Position numbers and translations under genes: made by a program
IMG/VR virus record: IMGVR_UViG_3300014697_000001
Location: 186,516-250,515 of that record
Strand: one strand, 5' to 3'
From: a virus
Taxonomy: Duplodnaviria; Caudoviricetes
Length of the DNA: 64,000 bases
The notes under the pieces: model-generated
Database searches by the model: none
What the model was told of the DNA's origin: nothing
Seen by the model: only the letters and a program-made list of their open reading frames with translations
Shown: positions 5,219 to 62,496 of the stretch, piece by piece
Layout: each line of letters starts with the position of its first letter
Position numbering within the stretch: the first letter of the stretch is position 1

Positions 5219-7438
5219 ATGGAAACTATTCTTTTTGCTAACGACTGGCAGGAGAAGTACCCCACCGCAATTTGGGATACCAAGACGACCAATACCTCCT
5301 TTTTGGGTTTCTCGGCCCTGCTGAAACACATGGGGGTTAAGAACCACTTGTTCATGCTGGCATTGCTTCAGCCTGATCTTCAAGGGGTCGATCCCTTTGA
5401 TCCGTTACTCTCCGAGGAGATGAAACTCAAGATCAAGATCGAGTGTACGTTCAACCCTTGGTACTTCATTCGTGAAGTCATGCGGGTACCGCCGGCAGCA
5501 GGTGATACACCCATCAAGCTGGAAGCAAACCGGGGTAACATCTCGCTGTGGTGGAGTTTCCTGAACCACATCGACTACTTCCTTGTGCAGATCCGTCAGA
5601 CCGGTAAGTCCCTTAACTCGGACGGTATCTCGGTTTGGTATCAGGTCTTCGGCGCACGCAACTCGCGGTCCAACCTGTTCACCAAGGGTGACTTGTACAA
5701 GGAACACATTGCACGTCTGAAGAAACTCCGGGCATTGCTCCCTAAGTACCTGGTGAACATTGTCAAGAAGGACACGGATAACCAGAAAGAATTCACCAAC
5801 ATGTCCCAAGGTAACCGGATGGTGGTCTACATCCCTCAGAAGGACGAAGAAGCGGCCCGTAACCTAGGTCGTGGTCTGACTGTACCCCACAACCACACGG
5901 ACGAAATCGCGTTCCTGAAGAACGTCCACATCTCCTTGGGTGTTATGCTCGCAGGTGGTGGTGCGGCACGTGAAGAAGCGGCCCGCAACGGCCTGCCGTA
6001 CGGTAACATCTTTACTACCACAGCGGGCGAACTGGACACCCCGGAAGGGGCCTATGCCTACGACCTCATGACCGGTGGGGCCGAGTGGAACGATCACTTC
6101 TACGACTGCACCAATCGCACCGAACTGTACGAGGTGGTTCGCAAGCAGTGCCGTAACAAAGATGCCATCCTGATCAACGGTACCTTCAACCATCGTCAGC
6201 TGGGTAAGACCGATGCATGGCTCAGGACCAAAATTGCAGAATCCCGCCAGACCGGTGACGAGGTTCGGCGTGACTATCTGAACGAATGGACCTCAGGTAA
6301 CGCCAAGAACCCGCTGACCAAAGACTTGTTGCGCAAGATCATGGCCAGTGTGGTCAAGCCCGAGTTCCTTGAAATCGATAAGACGGACTATTATTCGATT
6401 CGCTGGTATGTGCCAGAACGAGAAGTTCGGGAAGGTTTGCCGGGACGTGAACTTGTCATGGGGATGGACACCTCCAACGCAGTCGGACGAGACAACATCA
6501 CAGGGGTGATATTGGACACCAGTACCCTTGAGACAGTCGGGGCATGGACAGTGAACGACTCCAACCTCACGGTGTTTGCCATGTGGCTGGTGAAGTTCTT
6601 TATCCGATTCAAGAAGTTGACCTTGGTGCCTGAGTCGAAATCCACCTGGATCGGTATTCTGGACACCTTGTTGCTGACTCTGCCGTCTCACGGTATTGAC
6701 CCTGCCAAGCGGATCTACTCGACGTTGGTTGATGCCAAGGACCAATCGCCTGAGGACCGTAAGCGCTACCACGAGTACATTGGGGATCGGGATAATTACC
6801 GGTCGTATCGGAAGCATTTCGGTTTCCCAACGAACCAAGGGTTGCGTGAGATCATCTATGGACCCGTCTTGCAGGAAGCGGCCAAGAAGACAGGTTCACT
6901 GGTACGGGATGCCAAGTTGCAAGGTGAGCTGGCACGTCTGGTGGAAAGGAATAACCGGATCGACCACCAGGCATCTGGACACGACGACCATGTCATCAGT
7001 TGGCTACTCTGTCACTGGTTCTTGACGTACGGTCAGAACCTTGAGCATTACGGCATTACCTTGAGCGAGGTCAAACGGCGCGTCTATGAGGCTGAACATA
7101 AGTTGTCCTGGGATGAACAGCGCCGCTACGATAAGCAGCAGCAGATTCGTGACGAGATCGCCCTGCTCAATGAACGGTTGTCCTCAGAGCGCAACGTCTA
7201 CGAACGAACCAAGGTGCAAAACCGGTTAGACCTCTTGATGGCCAAGATCTCCGATGAGTTTGACATGGAGAGTGCGGCATCCATTGACCAGATCAAAGAG
7301 AGTAACCGGGAGCGGCAGATGATCGATACCCGATCGTTTGGACCGGGTAGGGCCTTGGCCTTTGAGCGACCATTGAACCTTGACCTGCGCAGTCGAGGTC
7401 ATTATCAGGCGCCCAGAGGCCAGGTCATGATTCGGTGA
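5219..7438 (+). CDS. terL: Terminase large subunit
   Basis: Walker A QIRQTGKS, Walker B HTDE, coupling motif FTTT, and RNase H-fold nuclease motifs GMDTS and HDDHV. GAGG RBS. Confidence 0.92.
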   Translation: METILFANDWQEKYPTAIWDTKTTNTSFLGFSALLKHMGVKNHLFMLALLQPDLQGVDPFDPLLSEEMKLKIKIECTFNPWYFIREVMRVPPAAGDTPIKLEANRGNISLWWSFLNHIDYFLVQIRQTGKSLNSDGISVWYQVFGARNSRSNLFTKGDLYKEHIARLKKLRALLPKYLVNIVKKDTDNQKEFTNMSQGNRMVVYIPQKDEEAARNLGRGLTVPHNHTDEIAFLKNVHISLGVMLAGGGAAREEAARNGLPYGNIFTTTAGELDTPEGAYAYDLMTGGAEWNDHFYDCTNRTELYEVVRKQCRNKDAILINGTFNHRQLGKTDAWLRTKIAESRQTGDEVRRDYLNEWTSGNAKNPLTKDLLRKIMASVVKPEFLEIDKTDYYSIRWYVPEREVREGLPGRELVMGMDTSNAVGRDNITGVILDTSTLETVGAWTVNDSNLTVFAMWLVKFFIRFKKLTLVPESKSTWIGILDTLLLTLPSHGIDPAKRIYSTLVDAKDQSPEDRKRYHEYIGDRDNYRSYRKHFGFPTNQGLREIIYGPVLQEAAKKTGSLVRDAKLQGELARLVERNNRIDHQASGHDDHVISWLLCHWFLTYGQNLEHYGITLSEVKRRVYEAEHKLSWDEQRRYDKQQQIRDEIALLNERLSSERNVYERTKVQNRLDLLMAKISDEFDMESAASIDQIKESNRERQMIDTRSFGPGRALAFERPLNLDLRSRGHYQAPRGQVMIR

Positions 7439-43913: not shown

Positions 43914-44114
43914 CCGTGAACGATATCCACGGATAGCTTCAGGGACTTTGTTAAAGACGGTATGGGTGCGATAGACCCAGACCTGTTGACGTTATTCAGA
44001 TAAGCCCTCAGGAGATCCTGATGGATCTCCTGGGACTTCCTTGGATTTAGTTTTTTATCATTTTATCAGGGTTTGATATGTATTAAGCACCGTATGCGTT
44101 TAGGGGAGATCCCA

Positions 44115-46691
44115 ATGAAGATTGACGTTTACAGTCACGCGATCAAAGTAAGGGATGTAACCACAGACCGAGACCTGCAGGCCATGCTGTCGTTCTGTAA
44201 GCCCCTGATCGAATTTGGCTTTGAAAAGAAAGGCAAGAAGTTTTACCCCAAGGCAATGCGTACGTACGCCGCCGCGACCCGCAACCGTAAGGAATTCAGC
44301 TTCCACCGTAACCAACTGGATGAGTTGAAAGACTTCCTCTTTAAACGCCAGGGTTACGTTGAGCGTCTGATCCAGATCACCCACCACACCGTTGACCGTA
44401 GCGACTATCCGGTGGTTGAGTTTGACATCCGCAAGATGCACGACCCTCGACCGATTCAGGTCGGCATCATCGAATACATCCTCGACATTGACAACCCTGC
44501 ATGGGACCCGATCATCAAGATGGTGACACTGCAGACCGGTGGGGGAAAAATGGAACGGGCTACCAACCATGTCCGTATTCCGGGCGGCTGGAAGCAAATC
44601 GGGAAGCTTAAAGAAGGTGATTATGTCATCGCACGGGATGGGAAACCGACCAAGGTACTTGGCGTGTTCCCTCAGGGAAAGAAACAACTTTATCGCGTAA
44701 CCTTCTACGATGGCCGGTTTGTTGACGTCGGAGCTGAACATCTTTGGCAATCGTATTACGTCAATACACAGGAACACTGTCGGTGGAAGGTCAGAGATAC
44801 GCTTGAACTGAAGCGCCTGATTTCAATGCCCAATCCGAGAGTCTACGTCCCCTTGATGGACCCAGAAGATATTCCTGAGCAGGACCTTCCCATCGATCCT
44901 TGGTTATTGGGTGTGCTGATAGGCGATGGTAGTTTTACACAGCGACAAGTAACTGTAACAACCCCAGATCAGTTTATTGTCGATAAGGTTAACTCCAAAT
45001 TGACATACGGACAGAAATTGGTTTGGGCGGGTCGGTATAATTACCGCATCACCGGCAATCGAAGATACAATGCCATACAGGCGGACCTTGAATACCTTGG
45101 TTTGTTCGGATGTTCTGCCGTTGACAAATTTATTCCGTATATGTACCTAGAGTCTTCAATTGAACAGCGTAAGGAACTGCTCAAAGGCCTAGTTGACACA
45201 GACGGTTATGTCAATGGTCACGGTACGATGTCTTACTGCACCATCAGTGAGCAACTGGCCAAAGATGTCCAGTACTTGGTTCGTTCGTTAGGTGGGATGG
45301 CCCGGATTCGTACCAAGAACCCCGTCTACACGCACAATGGCGAGAAGAAAGACGGGCAGTTGGCGTACAACGTCTACATCCGTCTACCTAAGCCCAGCGA
45401 TGCCGTCAGCCTGCCGAAGAAGCTTGAACGTGTGAACGATGCGAATCAGTACTCACACAAGCTGAAGCTGCAGGTCAAGTCGATCGAAGCTGTGGATGTC
45501 GACGACGCTGTATGTATCATGGTTGAGCATCCAGAGCATCTCTACGTAACCAAAGACTTCATTGTCACCCACAACACCTTTCTTGCCCAGTACTGCATGA
45601 ACATGCTCCAGTCACGCACCGTCATCCACTTCAAGGGGGGTTACGTTGAGCGGTGGAAGAACGACTTGGAAGAGACGTTCAATTTCAAGCGTGGCGAGTT
45701 CCTGATTGTCCGTGGCAGTAAGGACATGATTGCCCTGCAGACCATGGCGCTGGAAGGCACACTGAAAGCCAAGGTCATCATCATCACCACCGCCACGATG
45801 CGTGATTACATCAAGGACTATGAGGAGTCCAACGGCTACTCCAAGGTGTACCCGATCGCACCGATGGATTTCTATCCTAAGTTGCAGGTGGGTTTCCGGA
45901 TCAATGACGAATTGCATCAGGAGTTCCACAACAACTACCGGATAGACCTGTATACCCACGTACCCAAATCGCTGGGTCTGTCGGCGACCATGACCAGTTC
46001 GGACAAGTTCAAGAACAAGGTCTATGACATTGCCTACCCATTGAGGCAGCGTCATGATGGTGGTGGTTACAACGTCTACATCGGGGTGACAGAAGTACTC
46101 TACCAGATGGATCAGGATGTACGGATTCGTTACATGGGTGCGCAGGGCTATTCGCACACTACGTACGAAGAATCCATCATGCGCCACAAGGGCCTGCTGA
46201 GAAACTACCTCAAGATCATCGAACATGCGATTTATAACCGCTTCGTTCAACATCGTGAGGAAGGGCAGAAGGCGCTGGTGTTCTTTGCGCGGGTAGATAT
46301 GTGCACCCTGATGGTTGAGCGGTTGAAGAAGCTCTACCCGGAATTGGACGTGGTGCGCTACGTGGGCTCCGAGGGTGACTCGTACGAAGACATCTTGGAT
46401 GCGGATATCACCGTTTCCACGATTGGCTCGGCAGGTACCGCCATCGACATCAAGAACCTGCGCTGTACGTTCATGAGCACAGCGATTGACTCGCGTCAGT
46501 CGAACGAGCAGGTGCTGGGTCGGACCCGTCCCCTTAAGGATTGGCCAGACATCACACCTGAGTTCATCTACTTCAGCTGTGTCGAGATTGAACAGCACGC
46601 CAAGTACAGCCGCAACAAGAAAGAATACTTCAACGGGAAGGTGGTTCACCACAACAGCGTGATGAGTAAGTATGTTCTAGCACTGAACTAA
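44115..46691 (+). CDS. SF2 (UvsW/RAD25-like) helicase containing an intein (gp75-like)
   Basis: Q-motif PRPIQ, Walker A TGGGK|T split by the intein, Walker B DELH, SAT, GTAIDI, QVLGRTR. Confidence 0.9.
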   Translation: MKIDVYSHAIKVRDVTTDRDLQAMLSFCKPLIEFGFEKKGKKFYPKAMRTYAAATRNRKEFSFHRNQLDELKDFLFKRQGYVERLIQITHHTVDRSDYPVVEFDIRKMHDPRPIQVGIIEYILDIDNPAWDPIIKMVTLQTGGGKMERATNHVRIPGGWKQIGKLKEGDYVIARDGKPTKVLGVFPQGKKQLYRVTFYDGRFVDVGAEHLWQSYYVNTQEHCRWKVRDTLELKRLISMPNPRVYVPLMDPEDIPEQDLPIDPWLLGVLIGDGSFTQRQVTVTTPDQFIVDKVNSKLTYGQKLVWAGRYNYRITGNRRYNAIQADLEYLGLFGCSAVDKFIPYMYLESSIEQRKELLKGLVDTDGYVNGHGTMSYCTISEQLAKDVQYLVRSLGGMARIRTKNPVYTHNGEKKDGQLAYNVYIRLPKPSDAVSLPKKLERVNDANQYSHKLKLQVKSIEAVDVDDAVCIMVEHPEHLYVTKDFIVTHNTFLAQYCMNMLQSRTVIHFKGGYVERWKNDLEETFNFKRGEFLIVRGSKDMIALQTMALEGTLKAKVIIITTATMRDYIKDYEESNGYSKVYPIAPMDFYPKLQVGFRINDELHQEFHNNYRIDLYTHVPKSLGLSATMTSSDKFKNKVYDIAYPLRQRHDGGGYNVYIGVTEVLYQMDQDVRIRYMGAQGYSHTTYEESIMRHKGLLRNYLKIIEHAIYNRFVQHREEGQKALVFFARVDMCTLMVERLKKLYPELDVVRYVGSEGDSYEDILDADITVSTIGSAGTAIDIKNLRCTFMSTAIDSRQSNEQVLGRTRPLKDWPDITPEFIYFSCVEIEQHAKYSRNKKEYFNGKVVHHNSVMSKYVLALN
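44550..45575 (+). mobile_element. Class 3 intein with LAGLIDADG endonuclease (342 aa)
   Basis: Starts with Met after GGGK and ends ...IVTHN before Thr+1. WCT triad in EHLW, AVCI and VTHN. LAGLIDADG motifs LLGVLIGDG and LLKGLVDTDG. Confidence 0.92.
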
Positions 46692-46779
46692 GTGGGAGGG
46701 CTTCGGCCCTCCCCTTATGTCGTGCGTCAATGAAAACCAACCTCACCCATTGTACAGACCATCATTAGGAAGTCCAGTT

Positions 46780-47775
46780 ATGATCCCCAGTAACGAAAAA
46801 GAAGTGATCAAAGCCCTTGGGTTGCTGTCCGACAACCTCACGAACAATAACCCCGGTCTAGCAGCCTACCCTCAGCTGCAGGGTACCTTCTACGCCCTGC
46901 AGGCCAATCTGCAGGACCTCGTTGGCGCACTCGTTGCCACCCAGCGGGACGAAGCCCTGTACGGCAAGACCGAAGCTGCAAAACTCTACCTACTTCAACA
47001 CCAGCGGCATCATTCGCTTCCAGAAGGGGTATTAAAGTCGGTTATGAAAGGCATGTATGCTGAAGCCTGCAGACGCCCAATCGGAATGATTTTAGCGTAC
47101 GCGATCGCTTATCGCGGGTTGAGTACGGAACCGTCACTCTGGATTAACGCAGATCAGGCAGCTTCTCGTGTCAAGGTCTTTCCCGATACTCGGGAAGTAC
47201 TGATAAGTTGGTACAATCGCGCCATGACCATCACACTGCCCGATCTTTGCACAGGTGCCGGAGTCGTCAACGCCCCGTTGTTCCACGAACCGATCCCGGT
47301 GGATGTGGACATGACGTACCTGGATAAAGTCTTGTACACGCCGTTGTATGAGCGTCTCGTGGGCGATGAGCACTGGGAGGTGACTGATCCCAAATATTTG
47401 CTCATGGATCACTACTTCTTGAAAGACGGCGAGGCCACTGAGGAGAACCTCGATCATCCACTGGTGCAGTTGCGCGCTCTGCTCAATGGAAGCATGTACG
47501 GTCGTACCGACGCTAGCCATGTGTACGCCGAGTGGAAAGATTATCGACTGCTGTTCTCCACAGAACGCGATTGGAATCATGATCCGTTATTATTGCTAAA
47601 GGTCTCGGTCAATGTACCGTCCACTGACCCGACTGCCCGGCACCATAACCTGCTCCATGGCTGGTGGCATAATCCGTTGCTGGTCAATGACCTGCTCAAG
47701 GACATGGACGGCATCATTGATCAGTTACTGACCCGGCACGAAGCCGAGCTGGCAGATCGACCGGATACCGTTTGA
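46780..47775 (+). CDS. Hypothetical protein
   Basis: About 331 aa, AGGAAG RBS, lying between terminators. Confidence 0.75.
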   Translation: MIPSNEKEVIKALGLLSDNLTNNNPGLAAYPQLQGTFYALQANLQDLVGALVATQRDEALYGKTEAAKLYLLQHQRHHSLPEGVLKSVMKGMYAEACRRPIGMILAYAIAYRGLSTEPSLWINADQAASRVKVFPDTREVLISWYNRAMTITLPDLCTGAGVVNAPLFHEPIPVDVDMTYLDKVLYTPLYERLVGDEHWEVTDPKYLLMDHYFLKDGEATEENLDHPLVQLRALLNGSMYGRTDASHVYAEWKDYRLLFSTERDWNHDPLLLLKVSVNVPSTDPTARHHNLLHGWWHNPLLVNDLLKDMDGIIDQLLTRHEAELADRPDTV

Positions 47776-48182: not shown

Positions 48183-48776
48183 GTGTTTAATATCAATCTT
48201 ACTTCGTTGCGTAACGCCATTGTGCAGGATTTCTCAAAGGCGTGGGAACTCAATGACGAAGCGCATCGTTTCAAGCATTTCAGTCAGGTTGAACTGTGCG
48301 GCAATGAAATCAACAATCGGCTGGGGTTGGGCCACGAACCAATCCTGATTCTGTTCTCAGCATTCTTCCATGACATGTTTGCATGGAGTCGATTCAATCA
48401 TCATTTACTCAGCGCTGAGTGGATCATGACCACCGATTATGATCCGATCGATACCTTGACCGAACATCAACGGGAACTGGTAGCTGCAGGCTGTCGGGAA
48501 CATCGTGCGTCAGGCAAAGACCCCTTCACCTGTCAGTTCGCTGAGCTGATGTGTGCAGCTGATCGGGAGTTGCCAGGTCGGATTGAGGACATGCTGGAGC
48601 GTGCTATTCAGTATCGAGTAGCGCGCGGCATGACACGAGATGTAGCCATGGCACCGGCCATTGCACACATCAAGGAAAAGTTCGGCACGGGCGGGTATGC
48701 CAGATATCCAAGACTGTATTTGGATGCCTTTGGTGATACTTTGGAAGTACAGCGAAAAGAAATCGATAACCTGTAA
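48183..48776 (+). CDS. HD-domain phosphohydrolase
   Basis: HRFKH...FFHD...NHH...EHR...AAD; AAGGA RBS; promoter motif upstream. Confidence 0.85.
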   Translation: MFNINLTSLRNAIVQDFSKAWELNDEAHRFKHFSQVELCGNEINNRLGLGHEPILILFSAFFHDMFAWSRFNHHLLSAEWIMTTDYDPIDTLTEHQRELVAAGCREHRASGKDPFTCQFAELMCAADRELPGRIEDMLERAIQYRVARGMTRDVAMAPAIAHIKEKFGTGGYARYPRLYLDAFGDTLEVQRKEIDNL

Positions 48777-48797
48777 GAAAGGAGTTTGACTACACAG

Positions 48798-48850
48798 ACG
48801 GCATAGAGAGGAGCCGCAAGGCTCCTCTCTTAGCTGTTTCTTTTTTCTTT
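48798..48850. terminator. Bidirectional hairpin terminator
   Basis: GACGGCATAGAGAGGAGCC-GCAA-GGCTCCTCTCTTAGCTGTTTCTTTTTT; nearly identical to 13133-13184. Confidence 0.8.
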
Positions 48851-48851
48851 G

Positions 48852-48875
48852 TTACTTACCGTAGTAAGCCAGCAG
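48852..48875 (-). pseudogene. Stranded original 3' end (LLAYYGK*) of the 970-aa gene
   Basis: The minus strand reads CTG CTG GCT TAC TAC GGT AAG TAA, matching the current terminus LLAYYGVN* at 49626-49652. Confidence 0.8.
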
Positions 48876-48940
48876 CGTGAAAGATTTTATGGCGATACAT
48901 TACTAACATGATCGACCTACCGATCAAATAAGGAATAGAA

Positions 48941-49582
48941 ATGAGAGTAAAACATGATCCAGTAATTGCAGCCTATAAAATCACAGATACTGAGACCGGT
49001 ACGTTTTATGTCGGAAGCACCACTAATCTTTCCAGGCGACTTGGGGAGCATAGGTTCCGTTTGCTGTCAGGGAAACACCCTAACATTAACCTTCAACAAG
49101 GTTTCACTTGTTGGGATAATATCGAAATAGAATACACTGCCGTGCCGACGGAAGAACTGTCAAAGAAACTTGAACAGAGTCTCTTGGATTTCCACAGAGG
49201 TGATCCAAATTGCGCTAACCTCGGTACTGGCGCAATAACCCCATGGTCTAACGGCATGCCCGATGAAAGTCGCGAGAAATGCCGGCTAGCCAATTTGGGC
49301 AGAACACGTAGTCCTGAGACGATCCAGCGAATACGTGAAGCTGCTCAGCAACGCCCGCCCGTATCAGAAGAAACTCGACGTAAATTATCGATGATCGGCA
49401 AAGGCAGACCTCATAGTGACGAACACAAACAACAAATAGCCGCTTCTCGCCGGAAACAAATTATCATTGACGGCGTTAAATACGACGGCATCGAAGTTGC
49501 TGCTAAAAGTCTTGGCCTATCCAGACCGACTGTCAGAAAAAGGTTACAGTCTCCTGACTGCACCACTTGGAATTTTACATGA
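48941..49582 (+). mobile_element. Free-standing GIY-YIG homing endonuclease with NUMOD3/NUMOD1 DNA-binding modules
   Basis: AAYKIT...FYVGST...RRLGEH...E...N catalytic domain; SPET/SEETRRKLS/HSDEHK repeats; C-terminal HTH. Own promoter and terminator; lower GC than its surroundings. Confidence 0.88.
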
Positions 49583-49625
49583 CATAATAGAGGTAGTCCC
49601 TAAGGACTACCTCTTCTTTTTTTGT

Positions 49626-52538
49626 TTAATTGACCCCATAATAAGCGAGAAGTCCTTGCCGCGCTTTCTCGTTCGGCAGTTCCTTCAGTGCAGTGGTCCA
49701 TTCGGTCAGACGTACAGCACGGTCCCGGTTGGCCGGATCGCACGTGGTCATCAGGATGGCAGTCATGTTCTGGAAATTACGCAACCCTTTCGGGGTAATT
49801 GCCATTTGACCGACGCCTACGTAAAGCTTCTTGGCTGACGTGATGCCAGTACTGTGCTTGTGGAAGAACAGCAGCAGTTCAGTCCAGCCTTGTACGAAGT
49901 CTTCACCTTCCAGACGCAGGACACGGCTGATGCAGCGCTCCAACAGCGTCTGATAGGGTGCAGCTTTGAGCGCGTTGCTCCCGGCAGCCTCACGCCCTTG
50001 GGCGTAGCTGGCCAGGTCATCGGTGACGAATTTAACCGTCATGGTCATTGACTCCTCAGTAATTTCAGCGATGCGACGTTTGATCGAATCATCATCAAGT
50101 AAAGCAGATACCCCAAACAGACGACTGGCTTGATTGACCAGTTCTTCTGAGGAGGCGTTAATACCTGGCAGGATCAGGCCTCGACACCAGGCTTTTATTT
50201 CACGACGGGTCCAGTGCTTGGCAGGCCGCGCATCACGATTGCGATCACGTAGCCAGATACCACTCGGAGTAGCCGGGACCTCGGTGCCATGTAGAACATA
50301 GGATTTGGCATCCTCGCGGTACCAGAACACCGGGACCTTGAACCTGACATAAGTCTCATGCCAGAGTTGTTCTTCAGTGGCTGCTTCAGTTGGCTGAATA
50401 TCCCCGCTCAACCAGGCCTTAAGTTCCACCTCACGCCATTCGCTGGCGCTCCGATAGATACGGGTCGGGTCGTTGAGGTAAACCCCGCTCTCCAATGCAC
50501 GCGGGACGGTTTGCCGTTCCAGGAACATCAAGACTTCGCGATCACTCCAGTTCACATCATTGTGACCATACTGAATCCGGATCAGTTCACGCACCCGAGT
50601 CATAAAGGCAACACAATCGGGAGAAAACTCCGCACTGATCTCGCCCCGGTTGAGGGCTTGCAGTTCTTTCCAGGTCCACTTGACAGGGGTGCTAGTGTCA
50701 CGAAGACGGTCTTCGACCAGGACACCATCAGCTGTCACAGTGGGCTGGGTTCCATTCCTGAAATGGGCCAGTACTTGTTGATCTGTCCAATGGGCATCAA
50801 TTCGGTGCCGGCCTCGGACGAGGTTGAATAACTCCGCTTCCAATTCCGGTGAGACTGTCATGTTACCGTCCAACCATGCCTTGAGTTGTGCATCCGATGC
50901 TATGTTTGCAACTGTGATAGGGGCAATGACCTCTGCCTCATATTCACCATTGGCTACAAACCGCTTGACCTGCTCATCGTTAAGATGCCCCGGCACGTTG
51001 AACCGCACCCGTAACGTCAGCATGATTTCATCAGGTTTTGCAGTGGCTGTCCGAATCTTCCCAGCTGCATAGGCAGTCAGTTCTTCATCAGTCCAGTCAC
51101 CTGGGTGTTTCTTGTCCCGGATAACATCTTCGACCAACATCCCGCTGTCAAAGCCCTCAGGAAGCTCATGGAGAGCAATGAATGACTTGACTGCATCATC
51201 GGTCCAGTTTGTCACGAAAGGCCCACAATGAAGCCGTAGGGCCGCTATGAGGGTTGCCTCGGTAGTATTGAGTCCTGCCGGGATCAAACCACGCGCCCAC
51301 CCGACCAATTCCGCCAGTGACCACCTGGAAGCGGACAGTAAAGTCCGTTGCTCACTGTCTGCAATGATCTCGTCAGAGGTACTTACAGACAACGCATCAA
51401 ACAGAGGTGAATCCTCGGTCACCAAATCGGTCCAGACCGTTGGAGTAACGGGCGGTAGCTCTTCTTCGGGCTCTGGCTCTTCGAGCACTTCTTCCTCAAC
51501 CACTACTTCATCGAGGGTTTCAGGCTCGGGAGTTTCGACTGTCTCGGGCTCAGGTTCTGGGAGCTCTTCTGGTTCGACGACTTCGACCGGTTCTTCTGGG
51601 ATCACCCCATCGAGCAGGTAGTTGCGCCGCTGATCCTCATCCCACCAGCTGTGGTCAATCGCATTCGGTAGCGGAAGACTCTTTTCAAGGACCTCGTATG
51701 CCCGTGTGTCGTTTTCTTCACGCACCAGGCGCTTGAGTTGATCTGTCGAGAAGCGGCTATAATCAAGGTCCACTTCCGGGATCTCTTCGTCCCTGACCCA
51801 AGTCAACAAAGACGCACGGTCCCAGTACCACTCTCCACCGAAGGCATCCAAGGCTCTGGCCAGGAGGGCTTCATCGGTAGAGTCAGGCTCGAGTTCACCC
51901 AAGGCATACGCTTGAAGTTCATCGTCGGTCCAATCGGCGACCGCCTTGCTGGCCCGTCGACGGTCATTGATGAGAACACCATTGCTGGTCAGCTCAGGCT
52001 TGATCCGATCCCTGATATACGCACAGTAGTCTTCAAACGTGATGCCCAGCGGCAAGTCAAACCGTTCGCAGGCCTCATCGAGGATGTAGAGCTTAGAGCG
52101 ATCCAACTCACCGAAGTACCCACACCCAAGATCCACCAGCTCAGAATCATTCCATGTGCTGGCGTCTTTGGTCCAGCGGGCCGGGTCGTTGAGGTAGTTC
52201 CCATTCGGGGTTCTCTCTGGGGTGCGCTCAAACAACAACCAATCGTAAAGTTCCTCTTCACTCCACTTCAAGGCATCTTTATCGACCAATAGGGCCTTGG
52301 TGCGAAGGGTGCGGTAGAAGTCCCCAGTGCCCGGTTGTTGCTGGGTGTAAAGCTCGTTGTTGGCCAGGGCGAACAGTTCGGCCAAAGACCAGTCAGCCAA
52401 ATCGCGGGCTTCTCGTTCGACATCCCCAACCCACAATCCATTTCGAGTCTTGGGAGGTTCCTGCCCCAGCTGCTCGTAAACTGCAATCTCACGTTGCGTC
52501 CATGCTGTGGGATAGACACCGTTGTATTTATCGCTCAT
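49626..52538 (-). CDS. 970-aa Trp-rich repeat protein with acidic Pro/Glu linker and helical C-terminal domain
   Basis: At least seven copies of P-x-x-T-x-[NS]-G-x-x-x-x-D-x-x-R-x(7)-W-x-x-x-E-L-x-A-x-x-x-G. AAGGG RBS. Confidence 0.85.
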   Translation of the reverse strand: MSDKYNGVYPTAWTQREIAVYEQLGQEPPKTRNGLWVGDVEREARDLADWSLAELFALANNELYTQQQPGTGDFYRTLRTKALLVDKDALKWSEEELYDWLLFERTPERTPNGNYLNDPARWTKDASTWNDSELVDLGCGYFGELDRSKLYILDEACERFDLPLGITFEDYCAYIRDRIKPELTSNGVLINDRRRASKAVADWTDDELQAYALGELEPDSTDEALLARALDAFGGEWYWDRASLLTWVRDEEIPEVDLDYSRFSTDQLKRLVREENDTRAYEVLEKSLPLPNAIDHSWWDEDQRRNYLLDGVIPEEPVEVVEPEELPEPEPETVETPEPETLDEVVVEEEVLEEPEPEEELPPVTPTVWTDLVTEDSPLFDALSVSTSDEIIADSEQRTLLSASRWSLAELVGWARGLIPAGLNTTEATLIAALRLHCGPFVTNWTDDAVKSFIALHELPEGFDSGMLVEDVIRDKKHPGDWTDEELTAYAAGKIRTATAKPDEIMLTLRVRFNVPGHLNDEQVKRFVANGEYEAEVIAPITVANIASDAQLKAWLDGNMTVSPELEAELFNLVRGRHRIDAHWTDQQVLAHFRNGTQPTVTADGVLVEDRLRDTSTPVKWTWKELQALNRGEISAEFSPDCVAFMTRVRELIRIQYGHNDVNWSDREVLMFLERQTVPRALESGVYLNDPTRIYRSASEWREVELKAWLSGDIQPTEAATEEQLWHETYVRFKVPVFWYREDAKSYVLHGTEVPATPSGIWLRDRNRDARPAKHWTRREIKAWCRGLILPGINASSEELVNQASRLFGVSALLDDDSIKRRIAEITEESMTMTVKFVTDDLASYAQGREAAGSNALKAAPYQTLLERCISRVLRLEGEDFVQGWTELLLFFHKHSTGITSAKKLYVGVGQMAITPKGLRNFQNMTAILMTTCDPANRDRAVRLTEWTTALKELPNEKARQGLLAYYGVN

Positions 52539-52551
52539 GGTGACACCCTTA

Positions 52552-53859
52552 TCAGGTAAAGGCTTCTGTGATATTGAGTTTGGCGGTCTTCAGTTCTTTT
52601 GCGTGCGCCGAGGCCATCATGATGTCCATGAACTTGGACGCCACTGACGTGTTTTCCGCACCGATGGCAAACGGAATGGCGGCCAGGGCTTCACCGACAC
52701 ACTTGGCACAGAAGTCAGGGCCCTTGGTCCGACAGAACATCGGCGACCGGGTCAAGATAGTCTTGCCTTCCAGTGACTTTGCGCGCTCAGTATCGATCAA
52801 CTTGATCCCACCCGGTACGATCTCCCACAGGCCAGTGTAATACTCGCCTTGACCGGGGTCGATTGTGCGTTCGATCCCAAGCTTGGAGCCACAGTCGTCT
52901 TCACTGATAGTGGTGTTCTGGAACACCCGCATAAAGAACTTAACCGCTTCACCTCCCAGTGCAGTCAATGCCCCACGGTAGAAGGAACCAGCACGGGAGG
53001 AGTTGAACATGTCAACCAGGTAGTCTGTATCCCAGCCTTCGTTGAGGCTATTGACGACCAGCTGTGCATTACCGCCTTCGTTGAAACCAGCCTCAGGACC
53101 GTGAATCAAGAACATCCGCTTACGGGCCGTGCCGAACGACTTTCCTGAACCCAGGAAGAAGCCCTCTGAGGGATCGCCGTCAATCCAGGCCTTGTCCATT
53201 GCGATCAATTCGTTCTGGATCTTGGCCTGAACCACCGGGTCAAACAGGCGGTCTTCGTTCTCTTTGAGCAGTTCGGCGCGGCGTACCCGGACAGCCGGAT
53301 CAGTTGTCAGTGCCTTGGGTGTAAGGGTTGGGACGAATACCTGCACGAAGCCTGCCAAGGCCCCCATGCAGCGCCCATAACGCATGTACATGGACACGGA
53401 GATCTGATCAGGTAATGGTGCCACCCCTTTGACCTTTTCGTCGTCCACCAGGCGTTTGGCGATGATCCGTTCGATCTTACCGATGTTGACCGGCCCCACC
53501 TCGAAGTCAATCCGATTACCGAACGCCTCGACCAGTACAAACCAGTTGAACAGCAGATCCCCATAGGTCGATTCAACTGCGACCTTACAGTTGGGGATCA
53601 TCTCTGGGGTCACGGTAATAGGATCGGCAGGGTAGAAGGCAGGCTCCATGGGTTTAGTGCCATCGAGCGGCACCCACATGTCTCCAGCTTCAGTTGGAAT
53701 GTAGCCTTCGGTATTGTCGCGGTTATACCGGATAGACCAGAGCTTGGGCGCCTCGTCATTTCGAGTTGAGCGCTTGACCGCAAAGGCTTCAACTACCCAG
53801 CCTTTGTAGCGATATGCGCCAGCCTGCAAGGCCTGTACATAGAAGTCAAACTTGTTCAT
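52552..53859 (-). CDS. Virion RNA polymerase beta'-like middle subunit (gp80-like)
   Basis: SLNEG, SRAGS, EDDCGS, RSPMFC...FCAKCVG Zn site, MMASAH. Confidence 0.88.
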   Translation of the reverse strand: MNKFDFYVQALQAGAYRYKGWVVEAFAVKRSTRNDEAPKLWSIRYNRDNTEGYIPTEAGDMWVPLDGTKPMEPAFYPADPITVTPEMIPNCKVAVESTYGDLLFNWFVLVEAFGNRIDFEVGPVNIGKIERIIAKRLVDDEKVKGVAPLPDQISVSMYMRYGRCMGALAGFVQVFVPTLTPKALTTDPAVRVRRAELLKENEDRLFDPVVQAKIQNELIAMDKAWIDGDPSEGFFLGSGKSFGTARKRMFLIHGPEAGFNEGGNAQLVVNSLNEGWDTDYLVDMFNSSRAGSFYRGALTALGGEAVKFFMRVFQNTTISEDDCGSKLGIERTIDPGQGEYYTGLWEIVPGGIKLIDTERAKSLEGKTILTRSPMFCRTKGPDFCAKCVGEALAAIPFAIGAENTSVASKFMDIMMASAHAKELKTAKLNITEAFT

Positions 53860-62453: not shown

Positions 62454-62496
62454 ATACATGATAGCGGTGAACCTACCCACGATCTAAGGAGATCGA
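62454..62496 (+). repeat. 43-bp direct repeat, copy 2
   Basis: Identical to 60982-61024. Confidence 0.95.

Follow-up and report, generated by a model that had tools for sequence, protein, structure and literature searches.

The gene end and its surroundings

The stretch of DNA analyzed here (the window; 64,000 nucleotides, positions 186,516 to 250,515 of the IMG/VR virus record IMGVR_UViG_3300014697_000001) is the last 64 kb of a 250.5-kb record, and its source genome is that of a phiKZ-like jumbo phage. Within it, the last codons of a conserved, essential-looking virion-protein gene of 970 amino acids (aa) very probably house a free-standing homing endonuclease element of ~0.78 kb (about 48876-49664). 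Comparison with related phage sequences demonstrates the anatomy of this element, the existence of its empty site, the foreign origin of the gene tail that it brought and repeated occupation of the same site in four lineages. Read in the orientation of the 970-aa gene, the element would consist of a foreign tail with its stop codon, an A-tract with a hairpin, a nuclease gene in antisense and a 65-nt leader, and the last eight codons of the native gene would persist as an unexpressed relic, followed by the native terminator and the gene of an HD-domain hydrolase. The closest GenBank phage is Pseudomonas phage pPa_SNUABM_DT01 (DT01), with 56% protein identity across the whole 970-aa protein, and a megablast search of the region against GenBank phages returned no match. 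From the relation to DT01, the hosts of this clade are probably Pseudomonas-like. The features of the locus are as follows.

48183..48776, + strand: HD-domain hydrolase gene (phrog_3921), the conserved neighbor beyond the insertion site
48796..48851, + strand: native A-tract/U-run and hairpin terminator of the HD-hydrolase gene (T2), from its fold; hairpin at about 48796-48839
48852..48875, − strand: relic of the native gene end, LLAYYGK and stop, 24 nt, presumably non-coding, from pattern search and comparison
48876..48940, + strand: nuclease leader, 65 nt, containing a Shine-Dalgarno sequence and, at 48894-48913, a promoter-like motif; putative function
48941..49582, + strand: free-standing GIY-YIG homing endonuclease gene, 213 aa, I-TevI-like (Pfam; phrog_314 'homing endonuclease', 6e-27)
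49583..49625, + strand: hairpin terminator brought by the element and serving the nuclease gene, possibly bidirectional; stem-loop at 49589-49614 and U-run at 49615-49624 (−19 to −20 kcal/mol, z −4.3/−5.2)
49626..49664, − strand: foreign tail, 13 codons (ARQGLLAYYGVN and stop), of which the first seven are probably foreign, from clustered differences to the related loci L045-L048 and low codon preference
49626..52538, − strand: 970-aa target gene with Trp-rich repeats (phrog_18270 'virion structural protein', 4e-59)
52552-53859, immediately upstream of the 970-aa gene: gene of a beta-type subunit of a multisubunit RNA polymerase (phrog_2962, 1e-127)

A live foreign tail and a presumably dead native one

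The open reading frame (ORF) of the target gene ends LLAYYGVN, with the stop codon at 49626-49628, and the C-terminal YYG motif is invariant among ten relatives of the protein. A back-translated LLAYYG pattern matched the window exactly twice, at 49636-49652 and 48859-48875 on the − strand, where none was expected (100 shuffles). These are the two strings, LLAYYGVN and LLAYYGK, that an earlier reading made without database searches (the sequence-only reading) had placed here, and its count of synonymous changes also holds: five of the six shared codons differ, each at the third position, leaving 13 of 18 nt identical. The second copy has its stop codon at 48852-48854 and is presumably dead, because in-frame stops lie just a few codons upstream and there is no start codon. 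Taken together with the next 15 nt (the A-tract), this relic is identical at 39 of 39 positions to the live tail of L047, a nuclease-free locus of the same lineage, and by itself it matches the DT01 gene end at 22 of 24 positions. It is also colinear from its first base with the tail of the outgroup L049, 40 nt of which are present twice in the window. The relic can in addition fold (48855-48870, − strand) as a small perfect hairpin whose 6-bp stem spans the Leu-Ala-Tyr-Tyr-Gly-Lys codons.

Within the lineage, the 970-aa protein falls at 90% identity into a cluster of six sequences: two of 970 aa ending GVN and four of 969 aa ending LLAYYGK (P0052-P0055), whose loci are L045, L046, L047 and L048. 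Over most of its length the gene body of the window differs from L045 at 0-2 positions per 290 nt, while at the end TAT TAT GGG GTC AAT TAA and in the first bases beyond it nearly every variable position differs. A cluster this tight in genomes that are 99% identical therefore represents a recombination patch and not point mutation. The patch is also poor in codon preference, its geometric mean relative usage being 0.26 against 0.63 for the native version; for the seven codons before it the corresponding values are 0.18 and 0.37. The last six codons including the stop (49626-49643) are certainly foreign, and the seven before them (49644-49664) probably are too, as judged from the alleles compared. 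These seven are of the window type in five of the six lineage alleles, L047 alone differing, at 8 positions within 16 nt, and the L047-type version is common to the outgroups L049, DT01 and L012. Since the seven codons are rare and the L047 version is shared with outgroups, a 13-codon tract starting at 49664 is favored over a six-codon tract.

The sequence-only reading had proposed that the element entered the last codons of the gene with a promoter, the nuclease, a terminator and a recoded tail, replacing the gene end from 49652 onward. Entry into the last codons and replacement of the gene end by a supplied tail are borne out by the empty alleles and by the match of the relic. The notion of a designed recoding gives way to that of a foreign allele that travelled with the element, and the boundary probably lies 12 nt further upstream than 49652, at 49664. 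The codons TAT TAT were found only in tails left of a nuclease or in GVN alleles. Judged by eye, CNNNG, an I-TevI-like cleavage motif, is present in the native TAC TAC GG, is gone from the TAT TAT tails of the window and of L021 (a carrier from another lineage, see below), and is absent from both alleles of a further pair, L041 and L020, so that no cut site is claimed from it.

Empty sites and allelic series within the lineage

The nuclease is polymorphic for presence and absence, with differences clustered at the junctions: the window has it, and L045-L048, which are 98-99% identical to the window in nucleotide sequence over the gene, do not. All four end LLAYYGK, as had been predicted for endonuclease-free relatives, and the accompanying prediction, that this ending should stand directly before the terminator, agrees with the outgroups L049 and DT01. 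In DT01, LLAYYGK is followed by an A-tract, a hairpin, one small ORF and the HD-hydrolase gene, with no nuclease; in L049 (81% protein identity in the C-terminal third) the tail, terminator and hydrolase gene form a simple empty site. No exact match to the expected empty junction, in which the left flank of the window is joined to the relic, turned up in IMG/VR; the real empty alleles differ in codons that this query had fixed.

Four allele states can be distinguished. L047 is fully native (state 1); L045, L046 and L048 are hybrids whose upstream part is window-like and whose ending is native (state 2); L010, L028 and P0051 have the full foreign tail without a nuclease (state 3); and the window has the full foreign tail, the nuclease and the relic (state 4). 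A scan for the ending AYYGVN and stop returned only two unrelated chance matches besides the L010 contig. Endonuclease-free relatives with the GVN version had been named beforehand as the outcome that would overturn the sequence-only reading. Such genomes do occur, in state 3, but the comparison clearly indicates that the GVN tail is derived and not native: it forms a patch of clustered differences of at least 18 nt in genomes that are otherwise 97-99% identical, and states 1 and 2 as well as the outgroups end GK. The identity of L010 to the window stops exactly after the A-tract behind the foreign tail. State 3 would be best explained by recombination between a carrier and a non-carrier in the A-tract, or by repair of a break in which the resistant tail was copied and the nuclease was not. 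A crossover in the few bases common to the live tail and the relic, through either excision or short-tract repair, would fit state 2.

In nuclease-free L045 (6917-7535; also in L046, L047, L048, L010 at 5360-5990, and L014), another cassette lies between the A-tract of the gene and T2. It consists of a first terminator (T1) and a 151-aa ORF on the opposite strand, flanked by duplicated A-tract/terminator sequence. With ORFs of 121, 196 and 245 aa in other relatives, the slot between the gene and T2 is a hot spot for accessory cassettes. The accessory ORFs between the gene and the hydrolase gene in relatives (151/198, 121, 196 and 245 aa) gave no Pfam match and no informative PHROG match.

Terminators and the right flank

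The hairpins beside the two tails are both strong (−19 to −35 kcal/mol, z −4 to −6). Both have their U-run on the + strand. This makes them classical terminators for the nuclease and HD-hydrolase genes, and at best bidirectional terminators for the 970-aa gene, a detail that the sequence-only reading treated loosely. The nuclease-side terminator has no other copy in the genome, unlike the native one, which belongs to a family (A-tract plus GC-rich hairpin) with six or more copies across the genome, 82-89% identical. Copies of this T2 family lie at window 48794-48851 and at G000:C1 70238, 75950, 183105, 199645, 73220 and 96352, and related phages use the A-tract-plus-hairpin design behind the same gene. 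Such shared A-tract/terminator sequences look like sites at which recombination takes place.

Across T2 and the next ~250 nt, within the hydrolase gene, the window is ~96% identical to L045, L046 and L010. With the T2 side and the gene side both native to the lineage, the element is therefore bracketed by lineage-native DNA on both sides. The hydrolase neighbor is present in DT01 and L049 as well. Recombination breakpoints are dense around the element: the hydrolase gene is a mosaic, its 3' ~250 nt being ~96% identical to lineage-mates and the remainder (the 5' two thirds) only 55-70%, with L011 closest (86% protein identity), and the 352-aa neighbor (46717-47775) is 90% identical to L012/L013 over its C-terminal 200 aa. 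The hydrolase and 352-aa genes, both being mosaic, were ambiguous as markers of the native flank and were set aside for that purpose.

The nuclease gene and its leader

The nuclease gene is convergent with, and thus antisense to, the 970-aa gene, an orientation that the sequence-only reading had not given. Its description as a GIY-YIG cassette between the two tails is supported by Pfam, PHROG and structure-profile matches. PF01541 (GIY-YIG) matched at 30.5 bits (cut-off 22.6) and NUMOD3 at 27.4 bits (cut-off 20.4), and the profile matches the structure of the I-TevI catalytic domain (1mk0) over residues 5-55, including two Tyr motifs and an Arg/His region that are invariant in three aligned nuclease homologs. 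No zinc finger was matched by Pfam in the linker of the nuclease. The gene is single-copy in the 250-kb genome, and its GC content at third codon positions (GC3) is 0.41 compared with 0.66 for the surrounding genes.

The leader of the L021 nuclease homolog also measures 65 nt and conserves a 20-nt core, though the proteins are only 52% identical. In the whole genome, the 9-nt leader core has 11 copies upstream of genes on the + strand versus 2 on the − strand; two of the 11, both in the terminal repeat, probably represent a single site. Among the copies are repeated promoter-RBS (ribosome-binding site) modules near 62454, and L021 conserves the core as well. The leader motif may accordingly be read as a promoter from its recurrence as a motif, and a scan for sigma-70 promoters upstream of the nuclease gene found nothing relevant, although a phiKZ-like phage would not be expected to follow a host-type consensus. 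More broadly, the motif CGATACAT[G/T]A after a T-rich stretch recurs upstream of genes on the coding strand and is a candidate phage promoter core; its sites on the + strand of G000:C1 are 45, 2445, 73275, 100996, 154257, 178838, 220820, 235409, 248968 and 250437. The sequence around the first and the last of these is identical, suggesting that the record carries a terminal repeat. Another k-mer enriched in the leader, ATGATCGAC, was dropped since elsewhere it is a coding Met-Ile-Asp word.

The same nuclease family at the same gene end in other lineages

Searches with the nuclease and with homolog profiles found this nuclease subfamily only beside homologs of the 970-aa gene; a single-protein locus search with the nuclease returned elsewhere only relatives of 26-28% identity. 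In L021, whose target gene is about 67% identical, a nuclease of 52% identity lies in the same orientation, the live tail has TAT TAT, and an eight-codon relic, ILSYYGK and stop, is of the type of L021's own relatives and starts at the same codon as the relic of the window. L041 can be compared with its nuclease-free twin L020, to which it is 94.6% identical overall and ~100% identical over the last 300 nt up to 9-10 codons before the stop. Beyond this breakpoint, L041 diverges abruptly through the stop codon, spacer and first terminator; next comes the nuclease, followed by another terminator (100% L020-like), the terminator being duplicated here and not the tail. In L016 and L017, compared with nuclease-free L018, the homologous nuclease gene lies just behind a single terminator. 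Judged by their junctions, the four lineages look like stages in a passage of the nuclease gene from intergenic DNA into coding sequence, where its target is duplicated.

On the other side of the L016 nuclease gene (L016:5945-5955, and likewise in L017), its ATG overlaps the stop codon of an upstream 121-aa ORF (ATGA), and the last residue of that ORF is changed from Ile in nuclease-free L018 to Ala. With this ORF end altered, the nuclease family therefore also rewrites the gene end on its other side. More distant GIY-YIG homologs or fragments (34-36% identity) are found at L021:8558-9226, L011:8660-8911 and L014:5909-6190, and the region in related phages is rich in homing endonuclease genes.

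A second mobile element that is present in some genomes and absent from others lies 4 kb from the nuclease element. Positions 44549-45539 of the window, ~1 kb inside a helicase-like gene (44073-46691), are a LAGLIDADG intein, Pfam LAGLIDADG_3 being matched by the product of the homologous helicase gene in L045/L046. The outgroup L049 lacks precisely this segment: its flanks adjoin there, and the gene encodes a 516-aa product with helicase domains. L047 has a different insert of about 650 nt at the intein position.

Proposed mechanism

The cutting and repair steps proposed here are modeled on the free-standing GIY-YIG endonucleases of T4-like phages (PMC2988022). During co-infection, the enzyme would cut the allele that lacks its gene, within or close to codons −13 to −4, and the break would be repaired from the carrier genome, with the gene body as the left arm and the relic, the terminator and the 3' end of the hydrolase gene as the right arm. 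The carrier would itself be immune, since its left copy has the foreign tail, its right copy has lost everything upstream of codon −8, and neither junction restores the target. The synonymous differences would then reflect divergence between phage lineages and would have been retained because they block cutting. The foreign tail would have travelled together with the element, and nuclease-free genomes with all or part of it would be products of conversion without insertion, or of excision.

More tentatively, and with a probability that we place well below even, the foreign tail may be an immunity allele that is transferable independently of the nuclease, in a live arms race among co-infecting jumbo phages. 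On the same speculative footing, L010, L028 and P0051 and the hybrids L045, L046 and L048 might be survivors of attack or footprints of excision, and the native half-site 18 nt upstream of the promoter-like motif might be an operator for self-repression in the style of I-TevI.

Alternative explanations

Several observations weigh against a homing element that brought a 13-codon tail. The GVN tail occurs in three nuclease-free contigs (L010, L028 and P0051); the window is the only nuclease carrier found in its lineage, so that active homing here is presumptive; tail similarity does not follow the nuclease phylogeny; the match to the I-TevI DNA-binding domain, at 22.5 bits, is below the Pfam cut-off of 27; and five of the six lineage alleles share the variant of codons −12 to −7 that we call foreign, which makes the left edge uncertain. 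The last point bears on a narrower element, the alternative to which we give the most weight, though it is clearly the less likely of the two. Here only the last five codons and the stop (49626-49643) would have come with the element and 49644-49664 would be native; the CTG CTG of the relic would be the right end of the element, acquired from an earlier host, and a 5-nt repeat in the Ala-Tyr codons would flank the insertion. The sharing of the window-type codons by GK-ending L045, L046 and L048 speaks for this version, as does the leader, which ends homologously in the window and in L021, so that the right junction would be old. However, the L047-type codons of the outgroups L049, DT01 and L012 look ancestral, and the window-type codons are the rarer ones by the usage values given above. 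L047 also has four more native-type codons upstream of the part preserved in the relic, a complete native allele in the lineage pool, and the relic matches L047 perfectly.

The three nuclease-free contigs bear instead on the idea that the GVN tail is native and that the nuclease, relic, terminator and hydrolase gene arrived as a block from another phage by recombination in the A-tract. In its favor are L010 and L028 (97.7% identical), which have GVN without a nuclease, the break in identity to the window right after the A-tract, the nuclease-free relative L029, which natively ends GVH, and the mosaic hydrolase gene. This idea is largely refuted, and we consider it very improbable: four lineage-mates and the 81% outgroup end GK, the changes are tightly clustered in otherwise near-identical DNA, T2 and 250 nt to the right of the relic are lineage-native (about 96%), and TAT TAT is confined to tails left of a nuclease or to GVN alleles. 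That just one carrier genome was found in the lineage could also mean that the nuclease is degenerate or domesticated, as a regulator or as an anti-competitor weapon without mobility, and that the structure is the fossil of one old illegitimate recombination; I-TevI, too, acts as a repressor (PMC2988022). We regard this as unlikely, in that the ORF is intact, none of the four homologs has internal stops, the GIY-YIG core aligned to I-TevI (profile positions 10-60) is conserved, occupation of the same gene end in four lineages with different junctions requires repeated mobility, and the allelic series is one of conversion tracts. A group I intron or an intein-like element, spliced out to restore the LLAYYGK end, comes to mind because I-TevI-type nucleases are classically intron-encoded and the JGI annotation of the L016 homolog reads 'group I intron endonuclease'. 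It is scarcely credible here: no Rfam intron model matched either strand of 48600-49900 at E<=1, in line with the absence of splicing assumed by the sequence-only reading; the nuclease is encoded on the strand opposite to the host gene; ahead of the insert, a complete conserved tail already ends in an in-frame stop; and the relic has no upstream reading frame. A free-standing homing element with its replacement tail is thus the explanation that we prefer.

Implications and comparison with known systems

The window illustrates a third route by which such elements can enter coding sequence, a replacement gene end, besides residence in an intron or intein and the splitting of a gene. One gene end presents four architectures of one nuclease family: the nuclease gene follows the terminator in one, comes with a second terminator in another and with a second tail in two, and these form plausible steps from intergenic to intragenic residence. 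The lineage also has four naturally occurring alleles (native, hybrid, nuclease-free converted, and carrier) that differ at no more than about 16 positions and separate the halves of the predicted target. Elements of this kind leave short foreign patches in the conserved virion genes of nucleus-forming phages, along with recombination breakpoints. This matters for competition between phages, for phylogenies that use such genes and for gene calling, through relics and atypical gene ends.

The nearest precedents are fungal mitochondrial elements, the mobile endonuclease ORFs (mORFs) with a foreign C-terminus described for atp6 of Allomyces macrogynus, for atp6, atp9, cox2 and nad3 of Glomus sp., for atp9 of Rhizopus and for cox2 of Mortierella (PMC3630166). 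As here, an endonuclease ORF lies in the 3' part of a conserved gene and the element supplies an in-frame, divergent C-terminal copy; downstream, what remains of the native C-terminus as a relic matches relatives that lack the element; most of the differences are synonymous; and the inferred source is gene transfer between lineages. In the window, the supplied copy is likewise in frame (49626-52538 reads through the patch to LLAYYGVN), and the relic matches the element-free L047 and DT01 better than it matches the inserted copy. The mORFs differ in being mostly LAGLIDADG (GIY-YIG only in atp9), on the strand of the host gene and often fused to it in frame, and their duplications run to tens to hundreds of codons where ours comprises only eight codons and the A-tract. 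An antisense nuclease gene with its own terminator and leader, and a double-stranded DNA jumbo phage as host, set the present case apart from them.

Among phages, the closest parallel is the 'intronless homing' of the free-standing seg and mob genes of T4-like phages, such as SegF/gene 56, SegG/gene 32 and MobE/nrdA-nrdB (PMC2988022). There too, GIY-YIG genes stand free next to conserved genes; during co-infection they spread through the repair of double-strand breaks, with co-conversion of flanking polymorphisms that confer resistance, and they are expressed from phage promoters and terminators. They differ in lying between genes or in splitting a gene into two polypeptides (mobE in Aeh1 nrdA, mobA in gene 60), and the T4 review makes no mention of duplication or replacement of a gene end (PMC2988022). 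A limited literature search found no phage case of an endonuclease with a replacement gene end, an absence that is no proof. I-TevI, from the td intron of T4, shares with the present enzyme an N-terminal GIY-YIG domain and NUMOD3-type linker repeats, and may share a C-terminal helix-turn-helix, the match to its DNA-binding domain being sub-threshold. As an autorepressor it binds a half-site over its own promoter (PMC2988022), an arrangement that the relic 18 nt upstream of the promoter-like motif resembles. It differs in its location within an intron and in its length (245 aa versus 213 aa here).

Among nucleus-forming jumbo phages, gp210 of PhiPA3 offers another comparison. This protein is reportedly an HNH enzyme that targets an RNA polymerase gene. 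Like the present nuclease, it is a homing endonuclease of a phiKZ-like phage; it targets a conserved gene of a co-infecting relative, as the present one would, with a plausible role in interference competition. The gp210 enzyme is intron-encoded and is reported to interfere with a co-infecting phage (PMC11620839), whereas the present enzyme is a free-standing GIY-YIG protein at the end of a virion gene, beside an RNA polymerase subunit gene. The nuclease itself is an ordinary I-TevI-like enzyme; what is new is the architecture, with an antisense gene, its own terminator and leader and an eight-codon relic, and the host, while the solution of a replacement tail is conceptually anticipated by the mitochondrial elements.

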